A stretch of DNA of 24,553 nt from Elusimicrobiota bacterium (GCA_027340875.1 DAIENX010000062.1:1-24553); one strand, 5' to 3'; shown: positions 1 through 23,330, counted from the stretch's first letter. Numbers and translations are program-made. Notes: generated by a model from the letters alone, not told the origin.

Positions 1-870
1 CATAGACACCGTAAAGCAGGCCGAGCTCTTCGCCGCCATCCGCGAGCATTACGACATACCCCGCAAGGATAACGTCTCCCTTAAGGATTACCCGACGATA
101 CGCCACTGCATCAGGTTCGTCATTGAGTCCAAGGCCGGAACCGCCACGGCTACCGCGGCCCATGCCCCGGCACAGACAGCAGCGATGTCCGTTGTCCAGG
201 CTGTCCCGGCACCCGTTGCAGCGCCCGCAGCCGGCGGGGTCGCCGAGGACGCCGTGCGCGAGACAATACTGAACATGATCGCTGAGAAGACCGGCTATCC
301 CAAGGACATGCTCGAGCTCGACCTCGACATGGAGGCCGACCTCGGCATAGACACCGTAAAGCAGGCCGAGCTCTTCGCCGCCATCCGCGAGCATTACGAC
401 ATACCCCGCAAGGATAACGTCTCCCTTAAGGATTACCCGACGATACGCCACTGCATCAAGTTCGTCCTTGAGTCCAAAGGAGGCGCCGTTGCTGCCCCGC
501 AGAAAGTGGCCGCGGAGGCCGCTACCGCACCGGTGCAGGCCTCGCCCGCTCCGAAAGCGGCTCCGCAGCCAGCTCCGGCGCAGAAAGTGGCCGCAGCGGC
601 CACCCCCGCCGCGGCCCCGGCCGCCGGCGGAGTTTCCGAGGACGCGGTGCGCGAGAACATCCTGAACATGATAGCCGATAAGACCGGCTATCCCAAGGAC
701 ATGCTCGAGCTCGACCTCGACATGGAGGCCGACCTCGGCATAGACACCGTAAAGCAGGCCGAGCTCTTCGCGGCGATGCGCGAGCACTACTCGATAGCCC
801 GCCGCGACGACCTCTCGCTTAAGGACTACCCGACGATACGGCACTGCATAAAGTTCGTGCTCGACGCCAA
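1..870 (+). repeat. Tandem ACP-domain repeats (partial copy 1-~130; copies ~240-478 and ~630-870)
   Basis: Positions 1-113 are identical to 346-458, and 287-378 are identical to 680-771. Offsets are 345 and 393 nt. A 15-nt repeat gcagaaagtggccgc occurs in the linker at 499-513 and 580-594. Confidence 0.95.
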
Positions 871-3499
871 GAGCGGAGCCGCGCCGGCCCAGACAGCCGC
901 GGCCGCAGTCCCCGCTCCGGCCAAGCGCCGGCAGAAGCCAGAGCAGCCGGAGCTGCTGGACCTCACCGCGGAGGAAGAACCCCCGGTCGCCGCCGAGCCT
1001 AAGCCGGCAAAGCAGGAATACCCCAAGCGTCATATACGGCATGTGCCCGTCATAGTCCCGGCGCCGGTGGAACAGGAAGTCATAAAGAAGCTGGCACCCA
1101 AGAGACCGGTGGCGATCTTCTCGGAGGACCTTGACCTGGCCAAGGCCTTCCGCGCCGAGCTCAATAAGCACCGCGCGGATTCCTATATCTTCACCCCGGC
1201 CAAGACCAAGCTGAAGGACTCCATAACGGTGGACTTCAAGGACATACCGGCCATGGAAAAGGCGCTGCAGGACTTCTCCGCCGAGCATCCCGACACGCAG
1301 GGCGTGGTCTACCTGACCGGCTGCATGGTCAAGTCCCTTTCCAAGGATACCGACGCCTTCGGAGACCTGAAGCGCTACGCGCTGCCGCTGTTCCTGGCGA
1401 CCAAGTACCTGTCCGCCGGGCTCAACAAGGCCGACGCCGGGCACACCACGTTCATGGCGGTGGTCACCACCCTGGACGGCGGCTTCGGCTACCGCACCAA
1501 GGACGCCTACGACCCGATCTACGGCGCCATCCACGGCCCCACGCTGTGCATCCGCAAGGAGTTGGAGAACAGCGCCGTGAAGATGCTGGACTTCGAGCCC
1601 AGCTCCTCCAACCAGCTCATAGTGCAGAAGACCTTCTACGAGATACTATACTCGGACAAGCGGCTGGCGATAGGCTACGCCGATGGCAAGCGCTGGACGC
1701 TGGTGGGCAAGCCGCAGGCGCTGGACATGTCCAAGCCCACGACCCAACTGGAAGGAAAGAACGTCCTCGTGACCGGCGCGGGCCGCGGCCTGGGAGCCAT
1801 GTTCTCCAGGATGCTGGCGGAGCAGCATAAGGCCAACATCCTGATCATAGACCTGATGGAGATAGGCGACAAGGCCAAGCGCCTGACCAAGATGAGCGAG
1901 TCCGAGCTGAAGGCCTGGAAAATGGGCGAACTCTGGAACGAGCTGAAGAACGGCCCGGAGAAGGCCACCCCCGCGCTGCTCGAAAAGGAATATACGCGCC
2001 TCAAGGACGCAGCCGACATGCACAGGAACATGGAGGCGATACGCGCCCTCGGCGTGAACGTGACCTATTACCGCTGCAACCTGACCGACCAGACCGCCTT
2101 CGACAGGACGATGGAGAGCATCAAGTCCGACTTCGGGCAGATAGACGGCGTGGTCCATTTCGCCGGCCTCGAGCGCTCCAAGCTCGTGGTGGACAAGGCG
2201 GTGGAGGAGTTCAACCTGATCTTCAACGTGAAGGCGGACTCCGCCATCAGGCTCTGGAAGTCCGGCATCGTCAAGGAGAAGGGCTTCTGGGCCATGGCCT
2301 CGTCGATAGCCGGTAAGTTCGGGAACCTGGGCCAGAGCGACTACGCGGCCGCCAACGACTACGTGGCCAAGTTCTGCGTCAGCCAGCAGAACCGCGGCGT
2401 GCGCGCCGTCAGCATAGACATGACCGGCTACGCGCAGATAGGCATGGGCGCCCGCCCCGGCGTCGAGGCGTTCCTGAAGTCTCAGGAGATGGAGTTCCTG
2501 TACCCCGAGGAGGGCATGCAGGCCTTCGTGGACGAGATAGCCTACGGCAAGGTGCCGGAGATCATACTTTCCGGCAGCCTGGGCAAGCTCGACTGGGACA
2601 AGCAGCTGCAGTACGAGCCCAACTTCTCCCCGTCGGCCTCCACCGGCTTCCACTTCGTGCCGAAGCTGGTCGACCTGCTGAAGGGGGAGATGCTGGCAGG
2701 GGTGAAGGACTTCACGCTGGCCGCGGACCCGTACCTGGCCGACCACTCCATAAACGGCACCCCGTACGTGCCGGGCGTGATGGGTCTCGAGACCTTCGCC
2801 GAGGCCGCGGCCCTGGTGACCGGCAAGCCTCCGAAGGCCCTCACCGGAGTGCGCTTCGCGGTGCCGATAAAGCTGCTGCGCAACCGCGACGCCGAGGTCC
2901 GGATAAAGGCGGAGGCCTCGGGCGGGGCAGTGGACATGCGCCTAGAGTCAGACTTCATCAGCCCCAAGGGACAGAGGCTCGGACAGACCCGCACCCACTT
3001 CAAGGCAGTTTCAGCGGAGGATGCCCCTTCGGCCTGGAACACCGGCATGCGCCCGCGCCTGCCCAAGTCCGCCAAGTACAAGACGGAAGCGCCGGTGATC
3101 TACAAGACCTACTTCCACGGTCCCAGTTTCCAGGTCCTCGACGGGATACTGTCGCTGGACAAGGGCTCGGTGCTGGCCGTCTTCAAGCGTCCGCAGGCGC
3201 CGCTCTGGAAGCAGGGCGCCCAGAAACTGGTCTTCCATCCGCTGGTGTTCGAGGCGCTCTTCCAGGCCTGCGGCTGGAGGGACATACAGTTCGACAGGAC
3301 CATGGCCCTGCCGGACGCTATAGGCGCCGCCATCGCCTACGACCACGAGCCGCTGGACCCCGAGACGCTGTTCCTCTACGGCGTGTTCAAGGGCAGGACG
3401 GAGGACAACAGGAGCCTCTACGACGCGTGGGCTTTCGACGGCGACTACAACCTGTTCGCCGAGCTGAGGGACTACGCGATGATCCCGACGCCCATCTGA
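2..3499 (+). CDS. PfaA-like iterative type I polyketide/fatty-acid synthase, C-terminal part (tandem ACP x>=3 - KR - double-hotdog DH); 5' end lies upstream of window
   Basis: The frame is open from position 2 (IDTVKQAELF...), so the ORF-track Met at 185 is internal. ACP motif LELDLDMEADLGIDTVKQAELF is repeated with Ala/Pro linkers. KR motifs: VLVTGAGRGLG, VVHFAG, SSIAGKFGNLGQSDYAAAN. DH motifs: YLADHSINGTPYVPG, FHGPSFQVL, HPLVFEALFQ. Stop TGA at 3497-3499. Confidence 0.92.
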   Translation: MDTVKQAELFAAIREHYDIPRKDNVSLKDYPTIRHCIRFVIESKAGTATATAAHAPAQTAAMSVVQAVPAPVAAPAAGGVAEDAVRETILNMIAEKTGYPKDMLELDLDMEADLGIDTVKQAELFAAIREHYDIPRKDNVSLKDYPTIRHCIKFVLESKGGAVAAPQKVAAEAATAPVQASPAPKAAPQPAPAQKVAAAATPAAAPAAGGVSEDAVRENILNMIADKTGYPKDMLELDLDMEADLGIDTVKQAELFAAMREHYSIARRDDLSLKDYPTIRHCIKFVLDAKSGAAPAQTAAAAVPAPAKRRQKPEQPELLDLTAEEEPPVAAEPKPAKQEYPKRHIRHVPVIVPAPVEQEVIKKLAPKRPVAIFSEDLDLAKAFRAELNKHRADSYIFTPAKTKLKDSITVDFKDIPAMEKALQDFSAEHPDTQGVVYLTGCMVKSLSKDTDAFGDLKRYALPLFLATKYLSAGLNKADAGHTTFMAVVTTLDGGFGYRTKDAYDPIYGAIHGPTLCIRKELENSAVKMLDFEPSSSNQLIVQKTFYEILYSDKRLAIGYADGKRWTLVGKPQALDMSKPTTQLEGKNVLVTGAGRGLGAMFSRMLAEQHKANILIIDLMEIGDKAKRLTKMSESELKAWKMGELWNELKNGPEKATPALLEKEYTRLKDAADMHRNMEAIRALGVNVTYYRCNLTDQTAFDRTMESIKSDFGQIDGVVHFAGLERSKLVVDKAVEEFNLIFNVKADSAIRLWKSGIVKEKGFWAMASSIAGKFGNLGQSDYAAANDYVAKFCVSQQNRGVRAVSIDMTGYAQIGMGARPGVEAFLKSQEMEFLYPEEGMQAFVDEIAYGKVPEIILSGSLGKLDWDKQLQYEPNFSPSASTGFHFVPKLVDLLKGEMLAGVKDFTLAADPYLADHSINGTPYVPGVMGLETFAEAAALVTGKPPKALTGVRFAVPIKLLRNRDAEVRIKAEASGGAVDMRLESDFISPKGQRLGQTRTHFKAVSAEDAPSAWNTGMRPRLPKSAKYKTEAPVIYKTYFHGPSFQVLDGILSLDKGSVLAVFKRPQAPLWKQGAQKLVFHPLVFEALFQACGWRDIQFDRTMALPDAIGAAIAYDHEPLDPETLFLYGVFKGRTEDNRSLYDAWAFDGDYNLFAELRDYAMIPTPI

Positions 3500-4128
3500 T
3501 GACGGCGGCGATGCGCGAGCTCCGGGAGGTCTGGCCTGGCACGGGCGCCAGCGTTATTTACCTGCCCGTGGAGGGCCAGGTGCCCGGCGGCTTCCTCTCG
3601 GCACGGGAAAACGCTGTCTACTCTGCGTTCCAACTGGAGAAGCGGCGCCGCGAATGGCTGGCCGGCCGGCTGGCGGCAAAAACGCTTCTCTCCGCCGGGG
3701 GTCTCGCCCCATCCGCCTGCGAGATAGGCATGGACAAGTTCGGCCGCCCCTGCTGCGGGCAGTCGCTGGTATCCATATCCCATTCCAACGGTTGGGCCAT
3801 GGCGGCCATAAAACCTGGCTCCACCTTCCTCGGCGCCGACCTGGAGAGGATAGAGGAGCGCCACCCGGCCTGGTACAGCGACTATTTCCATCCGGCGGAA
3901 CTCGCCTCCCGCGACCCTTCCGAAGCCACCAGGATCTGGACCATGAAAGAAGCCCTGCTCAAGGCGCTGGGACTGGGTTTGATGGCCGACCCGCTGGACA
4001 TCAGGACCGGGGAGAGGATAATGCTTTCCGGGAAAGCGCTGGAACGCCACCGCGAGATGGGCGGCCCCCATTATTCCGTTGAGACAAGGAGCTATCCAGA
4101 AGGTTTCTGGGCCGCGGTAGCCGCATAA
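3499..4128 (+). CDS. Sfp/PfaE-type 4'-phosphopantetheinyl transferase
   Basis: Motifs RRREWLAGR, GRP, SISHS, GADLE and WTMKEALLKALGLG. The ATG at 3499 overlaps the PKS stop (TGATG) and is preferred over the ORF-track start at 3427. Confidence 0.92.
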   Translation: MTAAMRELREVWPGTGASVIYLPVEGQVPGGFLSARENAVYSAFQLEKRRREWLAGRLAAKTLLSAGGLAPSACEIGMDKFGRPCCGQSLVSISHSNGWAMAAIKPGSTFLGADLERIEERHPAWYSDYFHPAELASRDPSEATRIWTMKEALLKALGLGLMADPLDIRTGERIMLSGKALERHREMGGPHYSVETRSYPEGFWAAVAA

Positions 4129-4159
4129 TCCAGCGGTAGAAAATCTCGGTCCAGGCGCC

Positions 4160-4227
4160 TCTTATTATAAGGTTCGGACCCCCATCTAAAAAGGTAAAAT
4201 ATCAGTTAAAGAGAGGTTACCCCGCCC
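4160..4227 (+). promoter_or_regulatory. Putative sigma70-type promoter region and RBS of the carboxyltransferase gene
   Basis: AT-rich intergenic island with TAAAAT at 4195-4200, TATTAT/TTATAA near 4163-4170, and GAGAGG upstream of ATG 4228. Confidence 0.45.
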
Positions 4228-5859
4228 ATGTCAGATCTAATGGAAGATCCCATAGCCGGAGCGTCCCAGCAGGGCGCCAAGAAGCCCCATCCCAAGAAGG
4301 TAAGGGTGGTCCCGGAATCGCTGAAACGCTTCCGCGAGATACACGCGGCGGCCGAGGCGGGAGGGCCGCCGGACAAGGTGGAGGCCCAGCGGAAGAAGGG
4401 CAAGCTGACGGCCAGGGAGCGCATCGCCTACCTGGTGGACGAGGATTCCTTCCAGGAATTCGGGCTGCTGATGGAGTCCCGCTGCACCGATTTCGGCATC
4501 AAGGACAAGCACATAAAGGGCGACGGCGTCATAACCGGCTTCGGCAAGGTCAACGGCCGCCTGGCCGCCATCTTCTCGGAGGATTTCACTCAGCTGGGCG
4601 GCTCGCTCGGCCGCACGCACGCCGACAAGATCGCCAAGCTGATGGACATGGCCGCTGACGCCAGGATACCCGTGATAGGCATCCTGGACTCCGGCGGCGC
4701 CCGCATCCAGGAGGGCGTGGACTCGCTGGACGGCTACGGCGAGATCTTCTACCGCAACACCAAGTATTCCGGGGTGGTCCCGCAGATCTCCATCATAGTC
4801 GGGCCCTGCGCCGGCGGCGCGGTCTATTCCCCGGCGTTGACCGACTTCGTCTTCATGGTCAAGGGCATGAGCAACATGTTCGTGACCGGCCCCGAGGTGG
4901 TGAAGGCGGCCACCGGAGAGACCGTGGACTTCGAGACCCTCGGCGGCGCCTCCACGCACGCCTCCAAGTCGGGCGTCTGCCATTTCGTGGCCAACTCCGA
5001 ACCGGACTGCTACCGCCAGGTGAAGGAGCTGATGAGCTTCCTGCCGCAGAACCGGTTCGAGGCGCCCCCGTCGCACGAGACCAAGGACCCGTCAGACCGC
5101 CGCGTGTCCCTTATGGAGAAGCTCTGCGAGGTGGACCCCCGCAAGCCCTACCGCGTCAACCACATAGTCTGGTGGCTGGCAGACGACCACAAGTTCCTCG
5201 AAGTGCACCACGACTACGCCAAGAACATCGTGATCGGCTTCATACGCCTGGGCGGACAGGTGGTGGGCGTGATAGCCAACAACCCGGCCCACATGGCCGG
5301 CGCGCTGGACATCAACGCCTCCGACAAGGCGGCGCGCTTCATCCGCTTCCTCAACAACTTCAACATCCCGATACTGACGCTGGTGGACGTGCCCGGCTAC
5401 TGGCCCGGCGTGGCGCAGGAGCACGGCGGCATCATCCGCCACGGCGCCAAGCTGCTGTACGCCTACTCGGAGGCCAGCGTGCCGAAGATAACGCTGGTGC
5501 TGCGCAAAGCTTACGGCGGGGCCTACATCGCGATGAGCTCCAAGCTGATGGGCGGCGACATCAACTTCTCCCTGCCGTCCGCGGAATTCGCCGTGATGGG
5601 CCCGCGCGGAGCCATAGAGATCCTCTACTCGCGCCAGATCAAGGAGGCCAAGGAAGAGGAAAGGGAGGCTCTGAGGGCGAAGCTCGCCAAGGAGTACTCG
5701 GATAAGTTCGCCTCGCCTTACCAGACCGCTTCCACCGGCTCCATCGACGAAGTGATAGAGCCCGTACAGGCCCGCGCCAGGCTGATCTCCGCCTTCCGCC
5801 TGCTCGCGGATAAGCGCAAACCGGGGGAGAACGAACGCACGGGCAACATACCGCTGTAG
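4228..5859 (+). CDS. Acyl-CoA carboxylase carboxyltransferase subunit (PccB/MmdA-like, fused beta+alpha CT domains)
   Basis: Motifs GKLTARERI, GDGVITGFG, DSGGARIQEG, GPCAGGAVYSPALTDF, MFVTGP, DVPGYWPG, GIIRHGAKLLYAY, RKAYGGAY and C-terminal GNIPL. Confidence 0.95.
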   Translation: MSDLMEDPIAGASQQGAKKPHPKKVRVVPESLKRFREIHAAAEAGGPPDKVEAQRKKGKLTARERIAYLVDEDSFQEFGLLMESRCTDFGIKDKHIKGDGVITGFGKVNGRLAAIFSEDFTQLGGSLGRTHADKIAKLMDMAADARIPVIGILDSGGARIQEGVDSLDGYGEIFYRNTKYSGVVPQISIIVGPCAGGAVYSPALTDFVFMVKGMSNMFVTGPEVVKAATGETVDFETLGGASTHASKSGVCHFVANSEPDCYRQVKELMSFLPQNRFEAPPSHETKDPSDRRVSLMEKLCEVDPRKPYRVNHIVWWLADDHKFLEVHHDYAKNIVIGFIRLGGQVVGVIANNPAHMAGALDINASDKAARFIRFLNNFNIPILTLVDVPGYWPGVAQEHGGIIRHGAKLLYAYSEASVPKITLVLRKAYGGAYIAMSSKLMGGDINFSLPSAEFAVMGPRGAIEILYSRQIKEAKEEEREALRAKLAKEYSDKFASPYQTASTGSIDEVIEPVQARARLISAFRLLADKRKPGENERTGNIPL

Positions 5860-5937: not shown

Positions 5938-5950
5938 TATAATGGGACTT
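5938..5950 (+). promoter_or_regulatory. -10 box (TATAAT) positioned for a leaderless mscS transcript
   Basis: Perfect TATAAT at 5938-5943, then 7 nt, then ATG at 5951. No Shine-Dalgarno is visible. Confidence 0.55.
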
Positions 5951-7015
5951 ATGGACAGGATAAGAACTTGGTTCGATTACGGACTGGTCATGGGCAACAC
6001 GCCGGTGGCCTACCTCTATGCGGCCGCAGCCTTCGCCGCGGCCCTGGCGCTGCTGTACCTGGTCAAGAACGTCGTGGTGGCCCGCCTGAGGGCGATGGCC
6101 GAGAAGACCGCCACGGACCTGGACGACCTGGCCGTGGACCTGCTGGACAAGTTCAAGTGGCCGGATTACCAACTGCTGGCCTTTTACATAGCGACCCGCT
6201 ACCTGGAGCGCAGCGCGGCCTTCGACAAGGCCCTTCTGGTGGTGCTGCTGCTCGTGTTCACCTATCGGGCCATAACGATGGCCCAGGCGCTGATAACATA
6301 CTGGCTGCACAAGATAGCGGCCCAGCGCCAGCTTTCCGACGCGGCCAAGGCCTCCGTCGTCAACAGCACGCAGGTCATCATGCGCACGCTGGTCTGGGTG
6401 GCCGCGGCGCTCTTCGTGCTGGACAACATGGGGGTAAACATCTCCTCCGTCCTGGCCGGCTTGGGCATCGGCGGCGTAGCCGTGGCCCTGGCTTCGCAGG
6501 CCATCCTCGGCGATCTGTTCAACTTCTTCGTCATCCTGCTGGACAAGCCTTTCACGGTGGGGGACTTCATAATAACGGACACCGCCGTCTGCGGCACGGT
6601 GGAGAAGCTGGGCCTGAAATCCGTCCACATACGCAATCTTTCCGGGGAAATACTGGTGGTATCGAATTCCAAGCTGCTAGCGATGGAGGTGAAGAACTAC
6701 CAGCACATGCAGCGGCGCAGGGTGGTGATAAAGACCTCGGTGGTCTATCGGACGCCGCTGGAAAAGCTGAAGCGCGTCCCGGCCATGATAAAAGAGGCCG
6801 TGGAGGCGATCGGCGACACGACCTTCGACCGCTGCAACCTCTCCGCTCTTGGCAGTTTCTCCGTGGACTTCGAGACCGTCTACTACCTGGAGAAGCCGGA
6901 CTACGCCCTGCATATGGCGGTCCAGGAGAAGCTCCTGCAGTCCGTGATAGAACGCTTCGGCCGGGAGGGCATCGAATTCGCCTACCCGACCCAGACGCTT
7001 TACGTTCAGAAATGA
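5951..7015 (+). CDS. mscS: Small-conductance mechanosensitive channel (MscS family)
   Basis: Motifs VLAGLGIGGVAVALASQAILGDLF, DKPFTVGDFI, GTVEKLGLKS, VVSNS and GIEFAYPTQTL, with N-terminal TM helices. Start is either 5942 or 5951; 5951 is favoured by the -10 spacing. Confidence 0.93.
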   Translation: MDRIRTWFDYGLVMGNTPVAYLYAAAAFAAALALLYLVKNVVVARLRAMAEKTATDLDDLAVDLLDKFKWPDYQLLAFYIATRYLERSAAFDKALLVVLLLVFTYRAITMAQALITYWLHKIAAQRQLSDAAKASVVNSTQVIMRTLVWVAAALFVLDNMGVNISSVLAGLGIGGVAVALASQAILGDLFNFFVILLDKPFTVGDFIITDTAVCGTVEKLGLKSVHIRNLSGEILVVSNSKLLAMEVKNYQHMQRRRVVIKTSVVYRTPLEKLKRVPAMIKEAVEAIGDTTFDRCNLSALGSFSVDFETVYYLEKPDYALHMAVQEKLLQSVIERFGREGIEFAYPTQTLYVQK

Positions 7016-7914: not shown

Positions 7915-7955
7915 AAAGAAGAAGGGCCCGGTATTCAGCCGGGCCCTTCTTCTTT
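7915..7955. terminator. Bidirectional intrinsic terminator between convergent genes
   Basis: Perfect 17-bp inverted repeat AAAGAAGAAGGGCCCGG / CCGGGCCCTTCTTCTTT with a 7-nt loop, between the + stop at 7896 and the - stop at 7972. Confidence 0.9.
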
Positions 7956-7971: not shown

Positions 7972-8703
7972 CTAGTGCGCTTCCTCCGCGGAGGGCTTCT
8001 TCCCGATCATGTCGTGCACCAGGAAGTAGAGCACCATCGCGGCCAGTATTATCTGCGTGGCGTAGAAGTTATGCGCGCTGGCCGCGGCGTTCAGCTCGTC
8101 GAAGCGGCCGTACAGCAGCGAGAAGCGGGCCATCACGGTGTTGCCGAAGGCGGCGCCGAAGTAGACCATCAGGAAGTAGATACCGAAGTTGGAGACCTTC
8201 TTTACCGCGCCCTTGTGCTCCACCGAGAAGAAGAAATAGAAGAGCACGCTGATGACGCCGACCGCTATCAGCAGCGCGTTAAAGATGCTGAAGGCCGACA
8301 TGGAGCCCAGCGCGGAGAACGGCTTTATCGTGCCGACTATCTGGCTCATGAAGTCGGTGGCCAGGCTGGCGGGCACCACCAGGCCGGCGCCGTAACCCAT
8401 CAGGAACGTGAAGCCGTACCTGGAGACCCAGGAGATCTTGGGGATGAACTGCGTCACCAGGGAGAGCCCGAGCACCGCCGGGATCAGGACGCCCCAGTCA
8501 TGCGGCGCGTGCGCGAGCGGGTCCCAGACCTTGGGGATCCAGATGTTGTACAGGTAGACCTGGAACCACCAGCCCATTCCGGCGCCGAGGTAGAGGTGCT
8601 CGGCTATCTTGAAGAACGGGTTGTCCTTATAGAGGAAGCTGAAGAGGAATATAGTAAGCCCGGCCGCTATCCAGACGCCGGCGATCATCCATGTTTCTGA
8701 CAT
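7972..8703 (-). CDS. Uncharacterised polytopic membrane protein (4th gene of the DUF6754-like operon)
   Basis: About 243 aa with roughly 7 hydrophobic segments. Motifs FSFLYKDNPFFKIAEHLYLG and FGAAFGNTVMARFSLL. GAGGTG RBS precedes ATG 8703. Confidence 0.85.
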   Translation of the reverse strand: MSETWMIAGVWIAAGLTIFLFSFLYKDNPFFKIAEHLYLGAGMGWWFQVYLYNIWIPKVWDPLAHAPHDWGVLIPAVLGLSLVTQFIPKISWVSRYGFTFLMGYGAGLVVPASLATDFMSQIVGTIKPFSALGSMSAFSIFNALLIAVGVISVLFYFFFSVEHKGAVKKVSNFGIYFLMVYFGAAFGNTVMARFSLLYGRFDELNAAASAHNFYATQIILAAMVLYFLVHDMIGKKPSAEEAH

Positions 8704-8712
8704 AGTCACCTC

Positions 8713-9534
8713 TTAGAGATACCTGATAACGAGAAGTATGATATTCGACGTCAATATCAGGGCCAGCACCAGCAGGTGGCCGAGGTTAAGCGAGTCTATG
8801 CCGGAAGTGCCCTTGCCCGGCTCTTGTATCAGCGACTCGTACTCCGCCGCGCCCTTCATGCCGCCGATCAGCCCCTTGAGTTGGCCGGTCTGCAGGTAGG
8901 GACCGTAACCGGGCTGGCTGATGGCGGTCACTCCGGCCACCAGCGGCACGTTGTATTTGTCTCCCACCAGCGCCACCCAGCTGTCCAGGATGCTGGTGCC
9001 GGTGATGTTGACGACCATCGCCATGTCCTTATAGCTCTTGATACCCTTCATTACCGGCAGCGAGCGGGCGTCCTTGCCGTCCTGGTCCTTGTCGTAGATG
9101 CCGTAGAAGTCGGAAGCCATCTGCGTCATCACGGCGGTAGGATTGGCCATGTAGGGGAAGATCGCGTAGTCGGTGCCGTTCACCTTCTTGAACTCTCCGG
9201 GCACCTTCTCGAAGATCTGCTGTATCAGGCCGGTGGAGCCTGCTATATAGGTCACCACGCCTACGCGCAGGTCCCTGCGGAAAGCGTGCCGGATGACGGC
9301 CGTCGCCTGGGGCTGCAGTTCCGGACGGGTGGACGGGTCGTAGTCGAGAGAGAACAGCACGAACGAGCCCTTAGGCAGCTTGTCCAGCGCCTCGTAGGCG
9401 TTGCGCGTGTCCCTGGCTATCGTCTTGTTCGGCAGCCCTATCGGCCTGATGATAGGAGTAAAAAGCACTATAGCCAGCAACAGGAAGATCCAGCGGCGGT
9501 CTATCTTGAAGAATTTCTGAAGTATTTCCTTCAT
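8713..9534 (-). CDS. Uncharacterised membrane-anchored protein with soluble alpha/beta domain (3rd gene of operon)
   Basis: 273 aa with N- and C-terminal TM helices flanking a soluble domain (DYDPSTRPELQP, PYLQTGQLKGLIGGMKGAAEYE). Intergenic spacing to neighbours is 4 and 9 nt. Confidence 0.85.
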   Translation of the reverse strand: MKEILQKFFKIDRRWIFLLLAIVLFTPIIRPIGLPNKTIARDTRNAYEALDKLPKGSFVLFSLDYDPSTRPELQPQATAVIRHAFRRDLRVGVVTYIAGSTGLIQQIFEKVPGEFKKVNGTDYAIFPYMANPTAVMTQMASDFYGIYDKDQDGKDARSLPVMKGIKSYKDMAMVVNITGTSILDSWVALVGDKYNVPLVAGVTAISQPGYGPYLQTGQLKGLIGGMKGAAEYESLIQEPGKGTSGIDSLNLGHLLVLALILTSNIILLVIRYL

Positions 9535-9538
9535 GAAC

Positions 9539-10207
9539 TCAATCCTTACCCATGTACTGTCTTTCGATGCCGAAGATGATCTTCAGCGAGGTGACCACGG
9601 TGCCTATAGAGATGCCTATCATGATGCCCCGCTTGCCGGCCACCGCGGGCACGCTCATGATCCACTCTATGACCTGGTCCACGCCGTAGTGGGTCCAGCC
9701 CAGCGCCTTGTCCCAGACGATCTGGCCCAGCGGCACCTTGCCGAGTATCAGGATGAAGGCCGCCACGAAAAGGACCAGGGCCTGGCCCGACTTGATCCTG
9801 AAAGAGCGGTAAGCGGTGGAGACGATGTAGAACGCGAGCACCGCGAACATCGTGGCGCTGAGGGGGTTGTAGATGGAGCGGAAGGCCCAGCCGAGGGAAG
9901 TGACCTGACCCGCCTCCATCTGCTTGCCGTGCATGAGCACCGCCGGGACCACCATCGCCGCGAAGCCGATGAAGACGAACAGGCTGTATCCCCAGCCGTC
10001 GGTCCGGCGGCTGATCTTGCTGAAGTGGGAGTAGAACAGGCTTATCAGGCCCAGCAGGAAGGCGAAGGCCGACACGATGTTCTCCCACTTGTTTATCATC
10101 TCCAGATAATCGACCGAGGTCTTGTTAGGTATATAGTAGGAGGCGACGGTGAACAGGCCCGTCACCACCACTATAGCCAGGGGAATATGTTTTTTGATCA
10201 GTTTCAT
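9539..10207 (-). CDS. Uncharacterised polytopic membrane protein (2nd gene of operon)
   Basis: 222 aa with about 6 TM segments. Motifs IYNPLSATMFAVLAFYIVSTAYRSFRIKS and AGKRGIMIG...GIER. 1-nt gap to the upstream gene. Confidence 0.85.
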   Translation of the reverse strand: MKLIKKHIPLAIVVVTGLFTVASYYIPNKTSVDYLEMINKWENIVSAFAFLLGLISLFYSHFSKISRRTDGWGYSLFVFIGFAAMVVPAVLMHGKQMEAGQVTSLGWAFRSIYNPLSATMFAVLAFYIVSTAYRSFRIKSGQALVLFVAAFILILGKVPLGQIVWDKALGWTHYGVDQVIEWIMSVPAVAGKRGIMIGISIGTVVTSLKIIFGIERQYMGKD

Positions 10208-10208
10208 A

Positions 10209-11462
10209 TCAGTAGGCCTTGAAGAGGTTGAGGATGACCTGCACGAAGGAATCCCAGTGCAGCCAGGTGCCGGCGGCCAGCACGATGGCGCCGAAGAACA
10301 CTGCGAGCATCACCACCAGCTTGCCGAAGTCCTGCACCTTGAGGGCGCTCATCAGCATCGGCTCCTTCGACAGGTAGGCGCCGGCGGCGTAAAGCTCCTC
10401 TCCGATCAGCGTGTAGTCGCAGGCGGTGAAGAAGAACGGCAGCTGGTGCTCGATGTCCGTGCCGGCTATCTGGATGGCGCCGGTGGTGGCGCCGACCTCG
10501 GCCAGCAGCAGGGACTCGGCCATGAAGTAGCCCATGAAGAAGCAGGCCGCGGGTTTCTCACGGGAGATCATGCCGTCCACGGAGGCGGCATAGGAGAACT
10601 GGTCGGCGCTGACGAAGTAGTTCAGGTCCTCGCGGTAGGAGTCCGGCCGGCCGGCTTCGAGGTAGGACTGCTTGACCACCTCTTTGCAGACGGTCATCAC
10701 GATGGGGTCGTAATGCGGCACCTTGATGTAGCTGTCGTACTGCGCCACCTTCTTGGAGACCTCGCCCAGGATGAACGTGGAGGCGATGGTGGAGATGGTG
10801 CTCATAGTGCCTATGCCGGGGCAGTAATAGATGGGTTTGCCCATCTCGGTGGCGCGGCCTATGGCCTCGTCGATGGCGTCGAGGCCGGCGATGCGGCGGA
10901 TGAACAGGCCCTTGCGCTTGGCGTGCGAAACGGCCATGAAGAACACCACAACAATGACGATGAGCAGCAGCAGGTTGTTGAGACGGTCCAGGCGGAACCA
11001 GTTGCCGCGCGGCGAAGCTTTGAGCGGCTCGGACTCCGCGTACTGCTTGCCTTTCCTGAGAGCGGCCACTTTCAACCCGAAGACGGTCCCGGGCTTGAAT
11101 TCCCCGAAGAAATCGGCCAGCTCCACCTTGACGGCGTGCTCGGCGGCGCCGCCGTTCCAGGCCCAGAAGGGCAGATCGATATCCTTGCCCTTATTAGCGG
11201 AAGCCGCGAAATCCGCGGCCTTGATCCAGCCGCCGTTCTCCTGCGAGGAGACGAACACCTGGTAGGAAGCGTCGGCGTCGTCGGCGGGATTGACGGGCCA
11301 GCGCAGCAGCAGCGCGTTGCCTACGTCGTACGGCATATCAGCGGCGGTAACGCCCAGCAGCGGCGCGTCCGGAGCTTTCGGAGCGGCCGGCTTGGCCGCG
11401 TTCAGCGGGGCCGCCGCCAGCAGCAGCGGCAGCAGCATGAAGATGGATCGGTTATATTTCAT
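10209..11462 (-). CDS. DUF6754-like membrane protein with signal peptide and N-terminal fibronectin-III-like extracytoplasmic domain
   Basis: Signal peptide, then a beta-rich FnIII-like region (AADMPYDVGNALLLRW...YQVF), a TM helix, then IRRIAGLDAIDEAIGRATEMGKP, AESLLLAEVG, IQIAGT, QLPFF, DYTLIGEELYAAGAYL and a C-terminal TM. The family name is from recollection of these motifs. Confidence 0.75.
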   Translation of the reverse strand: MKYNRSIFMLLPLLLAAAPLNAAKPAAPKAPDAPLLGVTAADMPYDVGNALLLRWPVNPADDADASYQVFVSSQENGGWIKAADFAASANKGKDIDLPFWAWNGGAAEHAVKVELADFFGEFKPGTVFGLKVAALRKGKQYAESEPLKASPRGNWFRLDRLNNLLLLIVIVVVFFMAVSHAKRKGLFIRRIAGLDAIDEAIGRATEMGKPIYYCPGIGTMSTISTIASTFILGEVSKKVAQYDSYIKVPHYDPIVMTVCKEVVKQSYLEAGRPDSYREDLNYFVSADQFSYAASVDGMISREKPAACFFMGYFMAESLLLAEVGATTGAIQIAGTDIEHQLPFFFTACDYTLIGEELYAAGAYLSKEPMLMSALKVQDFGKLVVMLAVFFGAIVLAAGTWLHWDSFVQVILNLFKAY

Positions 11463-11503
11463 AGACTGCCCTTATAATATAAATTAACTATAAGCGCAGG
11501 CAA
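11463..11503 (-). promoter_or_regulatory. sigma70-type promoter of the four-gene membrane operon, with overlapping inverted repeat
   Basis: On the - strand: TTGCCT, 16-18 nt spacer, then TATATT/TATTAT. Imperfect palindrome CTGCCCTTATA-N12-TATAAGCGCAG at 11466-11499 (10 of 11 pairs). Confidence 0.65.
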
Positions 11504-11550
11504 GGAAAATCGCCGCTCTTTACGGCGGGACAGGGACTTGGCGGGCGGGT

Positions 11551-12552
11551 TTAAACGTAGGGGCAGGCGGCGAAGTGACCCGGGGACTTCTCCTGAAGCT
11601 CGGGGACATGGTCCGCGCATTCCGGGCACGCTATCGGGCAGCGCGTCCTGAAGCCGCAGCCGGAAGGCTTGTTCAGCGGGCTGGGGACATCTCCCTTAAG
11701 GATGATGCGCTCGCCCCTGCGCTTGTACGGATCGGGCTGGGGGGCGGCGGAAAGCAGGGCCTTGGTATACGGATGGACAGGGTTCTTATTTACGTCATGG
11801 CTGCTGCCTATCTCCACCATGTTGCCCAGGTACATTACGGCTATCCGGTCGCTGATATGCTCTACCACGGCCAGGTCGTGCGCCACGAAAAGGTAGGTAA
11901 GGCCGAACTCATCCTGCAGGTCCTGGAGCAGGTTGATGATCTGGGCCTGTATAGAGACGTCGAGGGCGGAAACGGGCTCGTCGGCTATTATGAAGGCCGG
12001 GTTTGTGGCCAGCGCCCGGGCCAGGCCGATACGCTGGCGCTGCCCGCCCGAGAACTCATGGGGATAGCGGGAGGCGTAGGCGGCCTGCAGGCCCACCTTC
12101 TCCAGCAGCCAGGCCACCTTCGCCTTCTTCTCCCTGCGCTTCATCTCCGGCTTGTGGATATCTAGAGGCTCCTCTATGATGGCCTCCACGGACATGCGCG
12201 GGTTGAGGGAGGAATAAGGGTCCTGGAAGACCATCTGCATGCGCGAACGGAACGGGCGCATGGCGGCGCGGCCGAGGTTGGCGATATCGACCATTTTGCC
12301 GGCGGCGTCCGGGAACATTATGCTGCCGGAGCTTACCGGGGCGAGACTGATGAGGGCTTTGCCCACCGTGGTCTTGCCGCAGCCCGACTCGCCCACCAGG
12401 CCCAGCGTCTCGCCGGTCTTCAGGGAGAAGGAGACGCCGTCCACGGCCTTAACCTCGCCCACCTTCTTCATGAAAAGGCCGCCATGTATAGGGAAATGGA
12501 CCTTGAGGTCCTTCACGTCGAGCAGATCGCCGCCGGACCGGGACTTCGTCAT
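11551..12552 (-). CDS. oppF: Oligopeptide/dipeptide ABC transporter ATP-binding subunit (OppF/DppF-like)
   Basis: Walker A GESGCGKTT, FQDPYSSLNPR, signature FSGGQRQR, Walker B IIADEPVSALD, HPYT, and C-terminal GCGFRTRC...C...AC. Confidence 0.93.
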   Translation of the reverse strand: MTKSRSGGDLLDVKDLKVHFPIHGGLFMKKVGEVKAVDGVSFSLKTGETLGLVGESGCGKTTVGKALISLAPVSSGSIMFPDAAGKMVDIANLGRAAMRPFRSRMQMVFQDPYSSLNPRMSVEAIIEEPLDIHKPEMKRREKKAKVAWLLEKVGLQAAYASRYPHEFSGGQRQRIGLARALATNPAFIIADEPVSALDVSIQAQIINLLQDLQDEFGLTYLFVAHDLAVVEHISDRIAVMYLGNMVEIGSSHDVNKNPVHPYTKALLSAAPQPDPYKRRGERIILKGDVPSPLNKPSGCGFRTRCPIACPECADHVPELQEKSPGHFAACPYV

Positions 12553-13553
12553 GACCTGTCCTCCCCGCGCGCCTTGCAGAGATGGCAGCGCACCTGCCTT
12601 CCGGGGGAGACCTCTACGAGCTCCGGCTCCTCCTGGCGGCAGATGTTCATGACCTCCGGACAGCGGTTATTGAACTTGCAGCCCCTGGGGAAACTGAAAA
12701 TGTCCGGTACCATGCCCTCTATGACAGGCAGGCGCTTGCCTGGTTCGTTCTTGAAGCCGGGCAGCGAGCGCAGCAGGCCCTTGGTATAGGGGTGCAGCGG
12801 TTCATCGAAGAGCGGCTTGACGTCGGAGACCTCCTGGATCTTGCCTCCGTACATCACGGCGACCCGCTGGCAAGTCTCGGCCACTACGGCCATGTCGTGG
12901 GTTATAAGCAGTATCGCCGCGTCATGAGTCTTCTTCTTTACGTCCAGCATCAGGTCGAGTATCTGGGCCTGTATCGTCACGTCCAGGGCGGTGGTGGGCT
13001 CGTCGGCTATCAGCAGCGCGGGGTCCGAGGCCAGCGCCATGGCTATCATCACTCGCTGGCGCATACCGCCGGAGAACTGGTGCGGGTAATCATTCAGGCG
13101 GGCCTTCGGGGAAGGGATGCCTACCAGCCCCAGCATCTCCACGGCCCGCTCCTCCACCTGCTTCTCGGTCAGGTCCTGGTGGAAGCGGATGGCCTCCTTG
13201 AGCTGCCAGCCTATCGAGAAGACCGGGTTCAGCGAGGTCATCGGCTCCTGGAAGATCATCGAGATGTCCTTGCCTCTTACCTTGCGCATCTCCGGGTAGG
13301 AGAGCTTCAGCAGGTCCCTGCCGCGGAAGTTTATCTCGCCGTGCGTGATCTCGCCCGGCGGATTAGGGATAAGGCGCAGTATGCTCAGGGCGGTCACGGA
13401 TTTCCCGCAGCCGGACTCCCCGACTAGGCCCAGCACCTCGTTCTCGAATATATGGAAGTCCACGCCGTCCACCGCGCGCGCGGTCCTGTCCTCCACGCGG
13501 AAGGCCGTCTTCAGGCCCTTCACTTCCAGCAGCTTCTTCTTTTCAGCCGTCAT
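12549..13553 (-). CDS. oppD: Oligopeptide/dipeptide ABC transporter ATP-binding subunit (OppD/DppD-like)
   Basis: [44 protein letters not shown] and GCKFNNRC. 4-nt overlap with the next gene. Confidence 0.93.
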
Positions 13554-14935
13554 CAGCGCAACCTCGAGAAGACCTTGGGATCGAAAGCCTCGCGCACGGC
13601 TTCGCCTATCTGCACCACAAGGAACAGCGTGGCGGCCAGCGCTATCGACGGCGTAAGTATAAGATTGGGGTAATACTTCAGGTACTGCATGCCCTGGCTC
13701 ATCAGCGTGCCCCAGCTGGGCGTGCCGACCGGCAGGCCGAAGCCGAGGTAGTCCAGCGAGACCAGCGAGCCGATGAAGGCGACTATGGAGAAAGGCGCGA
13801 AAGTGACCACCGGCACCAGCGAGTTGGGCAGGATATGCTTCATCATCACGGACCAGTCCGTGGCACCCATCGCCTCGGCGGCGTGCACGTAGTCCCTGGC
13901 CTTCTCGCGGTAGAACTCGCCGCGCATGTAGTAGGTCATGCCCAGCCAGGCCTGCAGCGCCACCAGCAGGGCGGCCAGCATCCAGAAGCCGGGCTGCACT
14001 ATGGAGGCGATGATCATTATCATGAACAGGAACGGGATGGAGCCCCAGATCTCGATGAAGCGCTGTATCAGGATGTCCGTCCAGCCTCCGAAATAGCCCA
14101 TGACGCCGCCTACGATAATGCCAATGACGTATCCGATAAAAGCCACCATCAGCGCGAAGGAGAGGGAGATACGGAACCCGTAGACCAGCTGCGCGAAGAC
14201 GTCGGCGCCGGAATCGTCCACCCCCAGTATGTGCTGGCGGCCGGGGGGATAGGGCGGACTGCCGTCCCGGTCGAGCAGATGCTCGCTCGGCGAATAAGGG
14301 TAGAGCGGCATCAATATGAACGCCTTGCCGGCGGCGAAAGCCTCCCTGGTCTTATTTACCAGAGCGATGTCGGTCTCTACGGCCGGGACTATCTCCTTCA
14401 GGTCGGCATAGTCCTGCTTCTCGTCCGCCGTGGAGCCTGGCCGGGCGCCGTACCCGGCTACCTGCCTCCTGAAACCGTCCAGCTCCTCGTTGAGCTCAGC
14501 TATCCGCCGGTCAAAAACGGAAGGGTCCTTCAATTCCGCAGCGAAAAGCCGGTAATCCACCTGGCCGTCGCCCACCTGGCCGAAATCGGACTCCACGTCT
14601 ATATGGCTGAAATCCCTGAAAGGCAGCATCGTGTTGGCCCAGTCGCGAAAAGCGGGGAAGGCTATATGCCCCTCGTAGCGTATCGCCAGCGGCTTGTTGT
14701 TGACCAGGAACTCGAGGAAGAACGACGTAACGAACAGCGTGGTGATGATAAGGAAGGAATAGTGGCCGCGCTTCATCGTCCTGAAGCGCTTGAAACGCTT
14801 CTGCCAGTGCGGGGAGGGCTTCATGTCGAAGCCCAGCTTCTTCCCGGCCTCAACGAACAGGAAGGGGAGCGCCCTGTGCGTCAACAGGTGGCCGGCGGCG
14901 AGGACAAGAGCTGCGCCCAGAACTTTTAATATCAT
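13553..14935 (-). CDS. Peptide ABC transporter permease (YejE/OppC-like) with extra N-terminal helix and periplasmic insertion
   Basis: KRFKRFRTMKRGHYSF, EFLVNNKPL, HILGVDDSGADVFAQLVYGFRISL, EAA loop DYVHAAEAMGA, LDYLGFGLP..PSWG and GEAVREAFDP. ATG 14935 overlaps the upstream stop (ATGA). The ORF-track start at 15580 is spurious. Confidence 0.9.
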   Translation of the reverse strand: MILKVLGAALVLAAGHLLTHRALPFLFVEAGKKLGFDMKPSPHWQKRFKRFRTMKRGHYSFLIITTLFVTSFFLEFLVNNKPLAIRYEGHIAFPAFRDWANTMLPFRDFSHIDVESDFGQVGDGQVDYRLFAAELKDPSVFDRRIAELNEELDGFRRQVAGYGARPGSTADEKQDYADLKEIVPAVETDIALVNKTREAFAAGKAFILMPLYPYSPSEHLLDRDGSPPYPPGRQHILGVDDSGADVFAQLVYGFRISLSFALMVAFIGYVIGIIVGGVMGYFGGWTDILIQRFIEIWGSIPFLFMIMIIASIVQPGFWMLAALLVALQAWLGMTYYMRGEFYREKARDYVHAAEAMGATDWSVMMKHILPNSLVPVVTFAPFSIVAFIGSLVSLDYLGFGLPVGTPSWGTLMSQGMQYLKYYPNLILTPSIALAATLFLVVQIGEAVREAFDPKVFSRLR

Positions 14936-15978
14936 TTGCCGAACCTTATCCGCGGGTCTATCATCGCCCAGATAACGTCGGAGAAGATATTGCCGGTCAG
15001 GCGTATCAGCACCCCGAAGACCATGATCCCCAGAAGGACGGGGTAATCGCGCTGGATGATGGACATGTAGCCCAGCAGGCCCATGCCGGGGATATTGCAG
15101 ATCTTCTCGATAAGGAAGGACCCGGCGAACAGGACGCCCAGCGCCTGGCCTATACCCACGGTAAGAGGTATCAGGGAGTTGCGCATCGCGTGCACGAAGA
15201 TGACGCGCTTCTCGGAAAGGCCTTTCGCGAAGGCGGTGCGCACGTAGTCCGCGCCCAGGTTGTCCAGCAGGGAGTTCTTCATCAGTATCGTCATCGACGC
15301 GAAGCTGCCTATCAGATAGCCGATGATGGGAACTATGGTGTGGTGCAACTGGTCCAGCACCTTGCCCGCCAGGCTCAGCTGGGCCCAGTCGGCGGACCTG
15401 AAGCCGCCCAGAGGCACGAGGTTCCAGAAGCTGCCGCCGCCGAACAGCACCAGCAGCAGCAGGCAGGCCACAAAGCCGGGGATGGAATAGCCCATGAACA
15501 CCAGCACCGACGTAGCGGTGTCGTAGCCCGTCTTGTGCTTGATCGCCTTGCTTACGCCCAGCGGCACGCAGACCAGCCACGAGGCGAAATAGCCGATGAG
15601 ACCGAAATAGACGGAAATGGGGAACTTGGAAATTATCACGTCCAGCACAGGCTCGCCGTGCACGTAGGAGCGGCCGAAGTCCAGGCGCATTATTCCCCAG
15701 AGCCAGCCGGCGTAGCCCACCGGGATGCTCTTGTCCAGGTGGTAATACTCCTTCAGTTCCTTCATGGCCTCCTCGGGGATCTGCTGCTCGGACTCCTCGC
15801 TGGCCATGCCCGCCGCGCCGCCCTCTCCCATCATCTGCATCTTGATCTGCAGCTGGGCCTGTTCGATAGGACCACCGGGAACGACGCGGAACACGGCGTA
15901 GACCATGAAGGTTATGGCTATGAAAGTCACCGGTATCAGCAGCACCCGGCGGATGAAATAAGTCGTCATTCCGTGCAT
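14932..15978 (-). CDS. Peptide ABC transporter permease (YejB/OppB-like)
   Basis: YFIRRVLL, VPGGPIEQ, LDFGRSY, KFPIS, YSIPGF, DYVRTAFAKGL, HAMRNSLIP, RDYP and DPRIRF. Start is 15978 or 15969. Confidence 0.92.
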   Translation of the reverse strand: MHGMTTYFIRRVLLIPVTFIAITFMVYAVFRVVPGGPIEQAQLQIKMQMMGEGGAAGMASEESEQQIPEEAMKELKEYYHLDKSIPVGYAGWLWGIMRLDFGRSYVHGEPVLDVIISKFPISVYFGLIGYFASWLVCVPLGVSKAIKHKTGYDTATSVLVFMGYSIPGFVACLLLLVLFGGGSFWNLVPLGGFRSADWAQLSLAGKVLDQLHHTIVPIIGYLIGSFASMTILMKNSLLDNLGADYVRTAFAKGLSEKRVIFVHAMRNSLIPLTVGIGQALGVLFAGSFLIEKICNIPGMGLLGYMSIIQRDYPVLLGIMVFGVLIRLTGNIFSDVIWAMIDPRIRFGK

Positions 15979-17774: not shown

Positions 17775-17785
17775 TTGTCCCGTAT

Positions 17786-17794
17786 AAAATAGCA
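17786..17794 (-). promoter_or_regulatory. Extended -10 promoter candidate for the ABC operon
   Basis: The - strand reads TG-C-TATTTT, 11 nt before ATG 17774, in an AT-rich 37-nt gap. Confidence 0.45.
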
Positions 17795-17811
17795 AATATC
17801 CCGGAGGTCTC

Positions 17812-21186: not shown

Positions 21187-21215
21187 AGTTTATCTCCTAG
21201 TAGAAGTTCTGCGCG

Positions 21216-23009: not shown

Positions 23010-23322
23010 TTGTATCGTCCTTTTCGGGTGGTTCGGCGCCGAGCCTCTCTACGAAGTAGTCTACCGCTTTCCTGTTCTCGAGGAGCGTCCTGTACTTCTC
23101 GACCTCCTCCTTCCTGAAAGCCATCGCGAGCAGGGGCTCCAGGAACGTCACCCCCTGCGCTCCGAGCCCGTGCATGGGGCGGGTGCCCTCCAGGGCGAAG
23201 ACCGCCACGTCGCCCATGCCCCGTTCCCGGACCTTCTGCGCCAGCGCGTCCAGCAGCTTTTTCTCCTCCGGAGTCGGCTCGGGCGGCTCGGGGATCTTGA
23301 AAGCGTTGTCCCAGATACCCAT
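22990..23322 (-). CDS. Small uncharacterised protein, first gene of the glmL-like operon
   Basis: About 110 aa (EEKKLLDALAQKVRERGM...ALEGTRPM...GAQ...FLEP...LLENR). It overlaps the glmL-like start by 20 nt. Start is 23328 or 23322. Confidence 0.75.
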   Translation of the reverse strand: MGIWDNAFKIPEPPEPTPEEKKLLDALAQKVRERGMGDVAVFALEGTRPMHGLGAQGVTFLEPLLAMAFRKEEVEKYRTLLENRKAVDYFVERLGAEPPEKDDTNVKERP

Positions 23323-23330
23323 CGCCATTC

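Follow-up and report, generated by a model that had tools for sequence, protein, structure and literature searches.

The described systems closest to the locus analysed here are of several kinds. DUF6754 (PF20539) is catalogued in Pfam as an uncharacterised family. GlmL/MutL (PF13941; NCBIfam NF040745 and TIGR01319) is an accessory protein of coenzyme-B12-dependent glutamate mutase, and Opp/Dpp-type importers (TC 3.A.1.5) are ATP-binding cassette (ABC) systems. Group II energy-coupling factor (ECF) transporters share one energising module among many substrate-specific membrane components, and in the MreB–MreCD–RodZ and PilM–PilNO systems actin-fold proteins work with bitopic or polytopic partners that carry periplasmic domains. 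Here we analysed a stretch of 24,553 nucleotides (nt) from an Elusimicrobiota bacterium (GCA_027340875.1, DAIENX010000062.1:1–24553; the window), in which four genes, g1–g4, encode membrane proteins that an earlier note, made from the sequence alone, had read as a candidate multi-subunit transporter or membrane machine. The genome is metagenome-assembled, and the best matches of its proteins are labelled Elusimicrobia. The first of them, g1, is a clear member of DUF6754; the Pfam entry covers this subunit A only, and its neighbours g2–g4 (subunits B–D), like the more distant c5 and c7, have no family of their own. Comparison with related loci indicates that the four proteins are, in all likelihood, one membrane unit of a seven-gene system. 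A self-contained system of four genes would be too small a reading: c5, c6 and c7, encoded at 20062–23328 of the same window, appear to belong to the set as well, and c6, which resembles an actin-fold ATPase, co-occurs with the module genome by genome. By the tests run, none of the seven proteins falls in a characterised transport, secretion or respiratory family.

Related loci were collected by a scan with the DUF6754 alignment, keeping one genome per species, and g1–g4 were then located in each by tblastn. The resulting 78 loci come from about ten phyla: the majority from Nitrospirota, the others from Elusimicrobiota, Methylomirabilis, anammox Planctomycetota, WOR-3, Latescibacterota, Binatia, Poribacteria, Gemmatimonadota, Sumerlaeota and others. 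All four genes were found in 69 of the 78. In eight of the nine incomplete loci the available sequence ends inside the module, and L076 continues for 1.5 kb past g1 without a g2 match. Once tandem copies were resolved, the order g1-g2-g3-g4 was invariable. The co-occurrence of the four genes in other genomes thus agrees with the unit that the earlier note had drawn; its statement that such clusters recur in anaerobic bacteria and archaea was too narrow, most loci being from Nitrospira.

Whole modules stand in tandem, in two or three copies, in four loci. Between these paralogous copies, identity is 31–53% for the g1 ectodomain and 41–76% for g3, compared with 58–79% for the DUF6754 part of g1, 46–80% for g2 and 49–77% for g4, so that in these alignments it is the parts predicted to face outside (the g1 ectodomain and g3) that change fastest. 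Three of 36 long g4 homologues are g3–g4 fusion proteins, each of them a single record in which a lost stop codon is possible. The duplication of modules as wholes, together with the fusions, fits a hetero-oligomeric complex.

Clustering of all open reading frames (ORFs) of the 78 loci brought out three further conserved, co-directional genes upstream of the module: c7 (~120 amino acids (aa)), c6 (~610 aa) and c5 (~376 aa). Of the 78 loci, 51 have c5 upstream of g1, the full array being c7-c6-c5-g1-g2-g3-g4. The c6 protein matches PF13941 over residues 9–479 (E 1.2e-126; 424 bits against a cut-off of 27) and carries an actin/Hsp70-type fold signature. Across loci outside Elusimicrobiota, identity is 57–73% for c6 (65–69% in most Nitrospira loci) and 48–61% for c5. 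c6 scores below the cut-offs of both NCBIfam models (231 against 475 for NF040745; 162 against 204 for TIGR01319), no B12 mutase domain lies near it in the window, and a search against Protein Data Bank (PDB) sequence profiles returned nothing for it.

The genome-level distribution of c6 follows that of DUF6754. Both occur in 24 of 24 genomes of the window's genus and in none of 14 genomes of the sister family; in a sample of 151 genomes of the phylum, DUF6754 was found in eight and c6 in the same eight. The third family of the order, with two genomes, has DUF6754 in one of them (G028, 83% complete) and c6 in neither. Where modules stand alone, in WOR-3 and Poribacteria, a c6 orthologue of 61–64% identity is encoded elsewhere in four of five genomes. 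From gene order and co-occurrence we infer that g1–g4 are the membrane half of a larger set, with c7-c6-c5 as its putative cytoplasmic part. The earlier note missed both this ATPase-like partner, although it lies in the same window, and the linkage to ABC genes described below. A second c6 copy, 98% identical to that of the window, is present on another contig of the window's own assembly (G000, contig C77:10298–12088), in which DUF6754 was found once; because the assembly is rated 5.5% contaminated, it probably belongs to another strain in the bin rather than being a true paralogue.

For c5, the signal is that of a barrel-sandwich hybrid, and it is weak. Its matches against PDB profiles are to RraA (E 0.019) and Spt5-KOW (E 0.013), and it gives sub-threshold hits to RnfC_N and NQRA_N (19.7 and 19.1 bits against cut-offs of 25.6 and 25; E 9e-4 and 1.6e-3). 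These hits to the N-terminal barrel-sandwich domain of NqrA/RnfC, together with transhydrogenase domain III among the fold matches of g1 (Z 9.3–9.6), are what would speak for an ion-translocating or redox-coupled complex. We regard such a complex as extremely improbable: no cofactor-binding family or motif was found in any of the seven proteins, no other Rnf/Nqr subunit is present, g1–g4 themselves giving no Rnf/Nqr family match, and in the fold search numerous unrelated Rossmann proteins match g1 equally well. Ion translocation, which the earlier note had offered among its candidate functions, thus found no support.

The best-defined of the membrane subunits is g1. Its match to DUF6754 (E 3.2e-111; 371 bits against a cut-off of 27; residues 152–398) is the only copy of the domain in the window's genome, and the family name that the earlier note had given was correct for this subunit. 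The domain spans a transmembrane helix, a Rossmann-like domain and a second transmembrane helix. An AlphaFold2 model built on a 50-sequence alignment (predicted local distance difference test (pLDDT) 92.4, predicted template-modelling score (pTM) 0.78) shows a signal-peptide helix, a beta-sandwich at 39–149, a transmembrane helix at 158–184, a six-stranded alpha/beta domain at 192–365 and a transmembrane helix at 368–400. The beta-sandwich (model residues ~30–158) aligns to fibronectin type III (FnIII) domains with Z 9.0–9.9 and root-mean-square deviations of 1.9–3.5 Å over 85–101 residues, and Foldseek gives TM-scores of 0.53–0.59 by target against single FnIII domains. The ectodomain is therefore predicted by the model to have an FnIII beta-sandwich fold; Pfam fn3 (PF00041) has no match in the window's g1 at E ≤ 1. 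Across the family, ectodomain length ranges from ~20 to >1000 aa, while the DUF6754 part stays ~50% identical. Among 57 long family members, three contain fn3 and three a PQQ_2 propeller, and fn3 was also detected in locus L077.

Lysine plus arginine counts on the g1 family alignment are 4.2 after the first transmembrane helix and 2.2 before it, which places the alpha/beta domain (~190 aa) in the cytoplasm. Of the 21 positions in the DUF6754 part that do not vary among 50 diverse sequences, many are polar (R189, E316, E322, Q331, T335, Q340, C348, D349, E355, E356 and D378). Positioned by the secondary structure of the model rather than by its coordinates, these residues map mostly to the C-terminal half of the Rossmann-like domain, within or beside its strands and helices, or else to the membrane border. 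Of the glycines after strand 1, only G216 is invariant in the 50-sequence alignment, and GxGxxG is not conserved. A fold search with the alpha/beta domain returned generic Rossmann-like matches at Z 9–10.4, with none standing out; they include phosphoglycerate kinase, LpxB, sirtuins, transhydrogenase domain III, RCK/KTN domains and MT0777. A cobalamin-related role, suggested by the GlmL likeness of c6 and by the precedent of MtrA, a membrane-anchored Rossmann-domain protein, was considered and dropped: g1 has no invariant histidine, and the 50 fold matches listed include no B12-binding domain.

The remaining subunits were placed by hydropathy and, for g2 and g3, by lysine plus arginine counts on the family alignments. 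g2 has ~6 transmembrane segments with its N-terminus inside, and g4 is polytopic. Both ends of g3 are cytoplasmic by these counts, so that its ~217-aa domain, between two transmembrane helices, faces outside. The earlier note had described two polytopic subunits, two subunits with soluble domains flanked by transmembrane helices and an FnIII-like extracytoplasmic module, and this architecture stands: the polytopic proteins are g2 and g4, the flanked domains are the alpha/beta domain of g1 and the outside domain of g3, and the FnIII-like module is the g1 beta-sandwich. It also holds, as the note had stated, that no ABC, tripartite ATP-independent periplasmic (TRAP), major facilitator superfamily (MFS) or redox family is found in g1–g4, at E ≤ 1 against Pfam and NCBIfam, and hidden Markov model searches assigned none of the subunits to a characterised transporter.

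g2, g3 and g4 have no Pfam or NCBIfam family match. ABC_tran and BPD_transp_1 domains are absent from g1–g4 and from 33 g4 and 37 g2 family members, and scans of the g2 and g4 families member by member gave scattered sub-threshold Pfam matches, with no transporter family common to most members. DUF3704, which appeared in 15 of 33 g4 members with a best E of 0.041, was taken as noise. Sequence profiles of g1 and g3 found nothing in the PDB (best E 0.82 and 1.3, respectively). In the ESM Atlas, g3 has a confident model (pTM 0.87) and its look-alike clusters are all unnamed, as are those of g4. For g4, the monomer model is poor (pLDDT 68.5, pTM 0.37) and has no PDB match in Foldseek at E ≤ 0.001, a result that is uninformative on its fold. 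Neither of the two pairs of subunits compared is detectably related: hhalign gave probabilities of 0.4 for g1 against g3 and 0.3 for g2 against g4.

Long forms of g4 (P0274–P0283 and P0305–P0309; P0284–P0304) carry an insert of 250–490 aa near g4 residue 137 in 13 of the 36 homologues and an N-terminal extension of 190–270 aa in 20. In the members tested, neither the insert nor the extension matches a Pfam family, g2 or g3. Three proteins of 830–964 aa (P0271–P0273) have N-terminal zinc ribbons (DZR, Zn_ribbon) and a g3-like domain at the C-terminus; similar clusters from Chloroflexota are present in the ESM Atlas.

The layout of g1, with an FnIII ectodomain, a single transmembrane helix and a cytoplasmic Rossmann-like domain, resembles receptor designs. 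It raises the possibility that the module is a signalling or regulatory anchor, in which ligand sensing would fall to the outside domains and control of c6 and c5 to the DUF6754 domain; the task of c6 and c5, a GlmL-like chaperone or kinase-like activity, would itself be cytoplasmic. RCK/KTN regulatory domains are among the g1 fold matches (Z 9.2–9.5), and the relatives of GlmL act on soluble enzymes, judging by their NCBIfam names. We consider this decidedly improbable, as a sensor would hardly need four conserved membrane subunits, of which the two polytopic ones have invariant polar residues, and the neighbourhood shows no conserved output domain or regulator.

In the window, a complete Opp-type importer and a 726-aa polytopic membrane protein lie between c5 and g1, with the OppF-like ATPase directly upstream of g1; no OppD/F pair other than this one (11551–13553) was found in the window's genome. 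Within the genus, the distance from c6 to DUF6754 varies between 1.7 and 16.8 kb, which indicates that the c5/g1 junction collects inserts. Opp-type genes stand beside or inside the system in 11 of the 78 loci, and outside the window's lineage they, above all the OppD/F pair, adjoin or interleave with the module in records from Latescibacterota, Binatia, anammox bacteria and Gemmatimonadota. In all, the records with such genes beside or inside the system fall in at least five phylum-level groups. The most complete interleaving is seen in two Latescibacterota loci (L062, L083), with the order c7-c6-binding protein-permease-permease-c5-g1-g2-g3-g4-OppD-OppF. A full Opp set immediately precedes g1 in L081 (Binatia), and in L072, L079, L087 and the anammox locus L053 the ATPase pair immediately follows g4, with no Opp permease in the available flank. 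A sample of 61 Latescibacterota genomes contains DUF6754 in 42, the ABC-ATPase tail domain oligo_HPY in 46 and both in 29; in at least 19 of these 29, an oligo_HPY pair lies 3.2–4.0 kb downstream of DUF6754 on the same strand. In G000, G042, G044 and G045, no Opp-type ATPase pair other than the linked one is present; G041 and G043 have three or four pairs, of which the linked pair gives the best match. Neighbours related to peptides otherwise appear as single cases: an M16 peptidase after g4 in L023, an S9 peptidase upstream in L066 and a PD40 protein in L087.

This arrangement would suit an accessory or alternative membrane partner of OppD/F-type ATPases, in which g1–g4 would work physically with the ATPase pair or the Opp importer, for instance in regulation, in delivering substrate or as a further membrane unit that these ATPases also serve. 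OppD/F is the part of the ABC system that abuts the module, both upstream of g1 (the window, L081) and downstream of g4 (L053, L062, L072, L079, L083, L087). The permeases are also found apart from the linked pair: G043 has, at a distance of 2.3 Mb, a permease pair with no ATPases beside it, the permeases of G045 are on another contig, and G042 has two Opp-type permease pairs and one ATPase pair, the linked one. We nevertheless consider a role as OppD/F partner improbable. g1–g4 have no BPD_transp_1 domain (no search for an EAA-type coupling motif was made), and most carriers have no linked ABC genes, 13 of the 42 DUF6754-positive Latescibacterota genomes giving no oligo_HPY match at all, whereas c6 nearly always co-occurs. 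Moreover, OppD/F are known to be shared among several permease sets, which ordinarily explains orphan ATPase pairs.

We propose, tentatively and from gene content and predicted structure, that the seven genes encode an ATP-driven module that takes up or processes a peptide-like nutrient alongside an Opp-type importer. Following this logic, g2 and g4 would form the membrane core, and the g3 domain and the g1 ectodomain would capture or gate a substrate outside the cytoplasm. The cytoplasmic DUF6754 domain of g1 would dock the actin-fold ATPase c6, together with c5 and c7, and the ATP cycle of c6 would drive the module, so that an external, probably peptide-like substrate would be taken up or processed in step with the Opp importer. 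A bolder version, which we hold to be rather doubtful, is that the set represents a new class of primary active machine, in which a GlmL-like actin-fold ATPase, in place of an ABC, P-, F- or V-type one, would drive a four-subunit module with exchangeable outside recognition domains, the machine cooperating physically with OppD/F or the Opp importer in acquiring peptides or proteins.

A different reading is a machine for envelope biogenesis, export or maintenance, in which the actin-fold ATPase, by analogy with the MreB–MreCD–RodZ and PilM–PilNO systems, would use g1–g4 to move a lipid, glycan, lipoprotein or surface protein outwards or to insert it. An actin-fold protein is here paired with bitopic and polytopic membrane partners, and the c5/g1 junction in the genus takes envelope-type inserts such as the 726-aa LIC_10190-like protein, which is found between c5 and the next gene only in Elusimicrobia loci L012–L016. 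Genes for Wzi-like, TonB/ExbB and TonB-dependent receptor proteins neighbour the system in single loci. We judge an envelope machine unlikely. The family is present in lineages with very different envelopes, diverged tandem modules sharing one ATPase fit substrate-specific recognition better than housekeeping assembly, and the importer is the only neighbour that recurs across phyla.

Several observations weigh against the uptake proposal. In most loci, and especially in those of Nitrospira, ABC genes are absent within 8 kb, and the 13 Latescibacterota carriers without oligo_HPY mean that the Opp link is not obligatory. In a tree of OppF sequences (19 rows, none omitted) the linked copies are not recovered as a single clade; its backbone is unresolved, and three of the four unlinked copies form a supported clade of their own. 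Unrelated housekeeping genes account for many of the neighbours in other loci, and related genomes are not independent counts. On the side of the ATPase, G028 has DUF6754 and G185 the module, each without a c6 match. On the side of the proteins, the Rossmann-like domain of g1 gives a flat, generic list of folds and has no conserved nucleotide-binding motif; 51 of the 57 long family members show only DUF6754 or sub-threshold noise, with no enzyme or known binding family; and a translocation path is not seen, the g4 monomer model being the poor one noted above.

The ORF call places g1–g4 head to tail on the minus strand (Table 1). The spacers are 1 nt between g1 and g2, 4 nt between g2 and g3 and 9 nt between g3 and g4, as the earlier note had counted them and as the junction sequences bear out. 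The last value applies to a g4 start at the ATG at 8703; an alternative GTG at 8709, two codons upstream, would give a protein of 245 aa (7972–8709) and a g3/g4 spacer of 3 nt. Shine–Dalgarno-like purine runs precede g3 and g4, with GAGGTG just 5' of the g4 ATG. The note had also credited the four genes with a promoter and a terminator of their own. The terminator is clear: between g4 and the convergent PpiC-type gene ending at 7896, the sequence at 7955–7915 forms a perfect 17-bp stem followed by a T run (free energy −32.2 kcal/mol, z −7.3), and none of 200 shuffled sequences folds as well. On the 5' side, the 88-nt spacer between oppF and g1 contains the sigma-70-like site TTGCCT-16-TATATT at 11503–11476; four such sites were found in the region against 1.1 expected. 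The site is preceded by a weak hairpin (free energy −11.2 kcal/mol, z −1.2), and three further Elusimicrobia loci (four in all) show the same succession of hairpin, T run, TTGCCT and TATATTAT. With just 11 nt between the end of the −10-like box and the g1 ATG, a promoter belonging to g1–g4 is no more than plausible, and transcription may also proceed by read-through from the Opp genes.

Table 1 Positions of g1–g4, their partner genes and neighbouring features in the window.
Feature	Position	Strand	Description	Basis
PKS/PUFA-synthase-like protein	185–3499	+	PP-binding, KR and PKS dehydratase domains	
4'-phosphopantetheinyl transferase	3427–4128	+		
Carboxyltransferase	4228–5859	+		
MscS-type mechanosensitive channel	5942–7015	+	converges on g4	
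SurA/PpiC-type prolyl isomerase	ends 7896	+	secreted; converges on g4	
Intrinsic terminator after g4	7915–7955	−	hairpin, shared with the convergent PpiC-type gene	perfect 17-bp stem and T run
g4 (subunit D)	7972–8703	−	243 aa, polytopic	hydropathy
g3 (subunit C)	8713–9534	−	273 aa; transmembrane helix, ~217-aa domain, transmembrane helix	hydropathy, lysine plus arginine counts
g2 (subunit B)	9539–10207	−	222 aa, polytopic; kept immediately 3' of g1	hydropathy, lysine plus arginine counts
g1 (subunit A)	10209–11462	−	417 aa	Pfam, AlphaFold2 model, lysine plus arginine counts
Intergenic element oppF/g1	11474–11527	−	weak hairpin (11527–11511), then promoter-like TTGCCT-16/18-TATATT/TATTAT	
OppF-like ABC ATPase	11551–12552	−	directly upstream of g1	oligo_HPY tail
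OppD-like ABC ATPase	12549–13553	−		oligo_HPY tail
BPD_transp_1 permease	13553–14929	−	start uncertain	
BPD_transp_1 permease	14932–15978	−		domain match
Family-5 solute-binding protein	15984–17828	−	614 aa	
Polytopic membrane protein	17812–19992	−	726 aa	weak LIC_10190 family match, E 2.4e-5, under cut-off
c5	20062–21186	−	374 aa; partner of c6	weak barrel-sandwich hybrid signal
c6	21216–23009	−	597 aa; actin-fold (acetate and sugar kinase/Hsp70/actin, ASKHA) ATPase-like protein	GlmL/MutL family
c7	22990–23328	−	112 aa; small conserved protein heading the array	
DUF192 protein	23408–23977	−	5' of c7	

Two parts of the importer, the binding protein and the second permease, exceed the lengths typical of Opp components; this permease (13553–14929) is unusually long, at ~458 aa, if its start is right after the first permease, as in L011. 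The plus-strand genes from 2 to 5859, in a row, encode the polyketide synthase/polyunsaturated fatty acid (PKS/PUFA)-synthase-like protein, the phosphopantetheinyl transferase and the carboxyltransferase. At the other end of the window, the region 5' of c7 (23408–24482, same strand) holds the DUF192 gene and a gene for a family-less secreted protein of 171 aa. In other genomes, a gene for a Memo-like protein (AmmeMemoRadiSam system protein B family, ~420 aa) lies 3' of g4 on the same strand in 23 loci, ~50–700 nt after g4; most of these loci, in the range L020–L063, carry the label Nitrospira or Nitrospirota.

The module is very common, the DUF6754 family comprising 2146 clusters at 50% identity, and its conservation is above that of most transport proteins, with the DUF6754 domain ~50% identical between phyla. 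Its carriers include ecologically central and poorly tractable groups, namely the Nitrospira nitrite oxidisers, anammox bacteria and Methylomirabilis. The system matches no described one in the libraries and literature searched: we found no paper mentioning DUF6754, PF20539 or PF13941 and none joining GlmL with Nitrospira, GlmL alone gave unrelated matches among those listed, and a broader search gave general ecology papers among those listed. If an actin-fold ATPase does power the membrane module, this would be a new energising principle for membrane transport or envelope biology. The linkage to Opp-type genes offers a first concrete experimental handle, namely peptide or protein uptake and interaction with OppD/F, and the interleaved operon of the Latescibacterota type suggests itself as an expression construct.

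Set against the described systems, the locus shares single parts with each. With GlmL/MutL, c6 has PF13941 in common; it differs in falling below the NCBIfam cut-offs, in ~120 extra C-terminal residues, in having no mutase nearby and in the membrane proteins encoded beside it. The genes of Opp/Dpp-type importers adjoin the module, but g1–g4 share no ABC permease, binding-protein or ATPase domain with them. In the Group II ECF transporters the logic may be alike, in that several diverged g1–g4 modules occur in one genome together with a single c6 encoded elsewhere. There is no relation to them in sequence or fold; the would-be energiser here is an actin-fold protein instead of an ABC ATPase, and a module comprises four subunits. 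MreB with MreC, MreD and RodZ, and PilM with PilN and PilO, offer an analogy of another kind, since there too an ASKHA-fold cytoplasmic protein is tied to membrane proteins. No homology to these systems was detected, and they have no counterpart of the Rossmann-like domain of g1; c6 itself is of the GlmL type rather than of the MreB, FtsA or PilM type.

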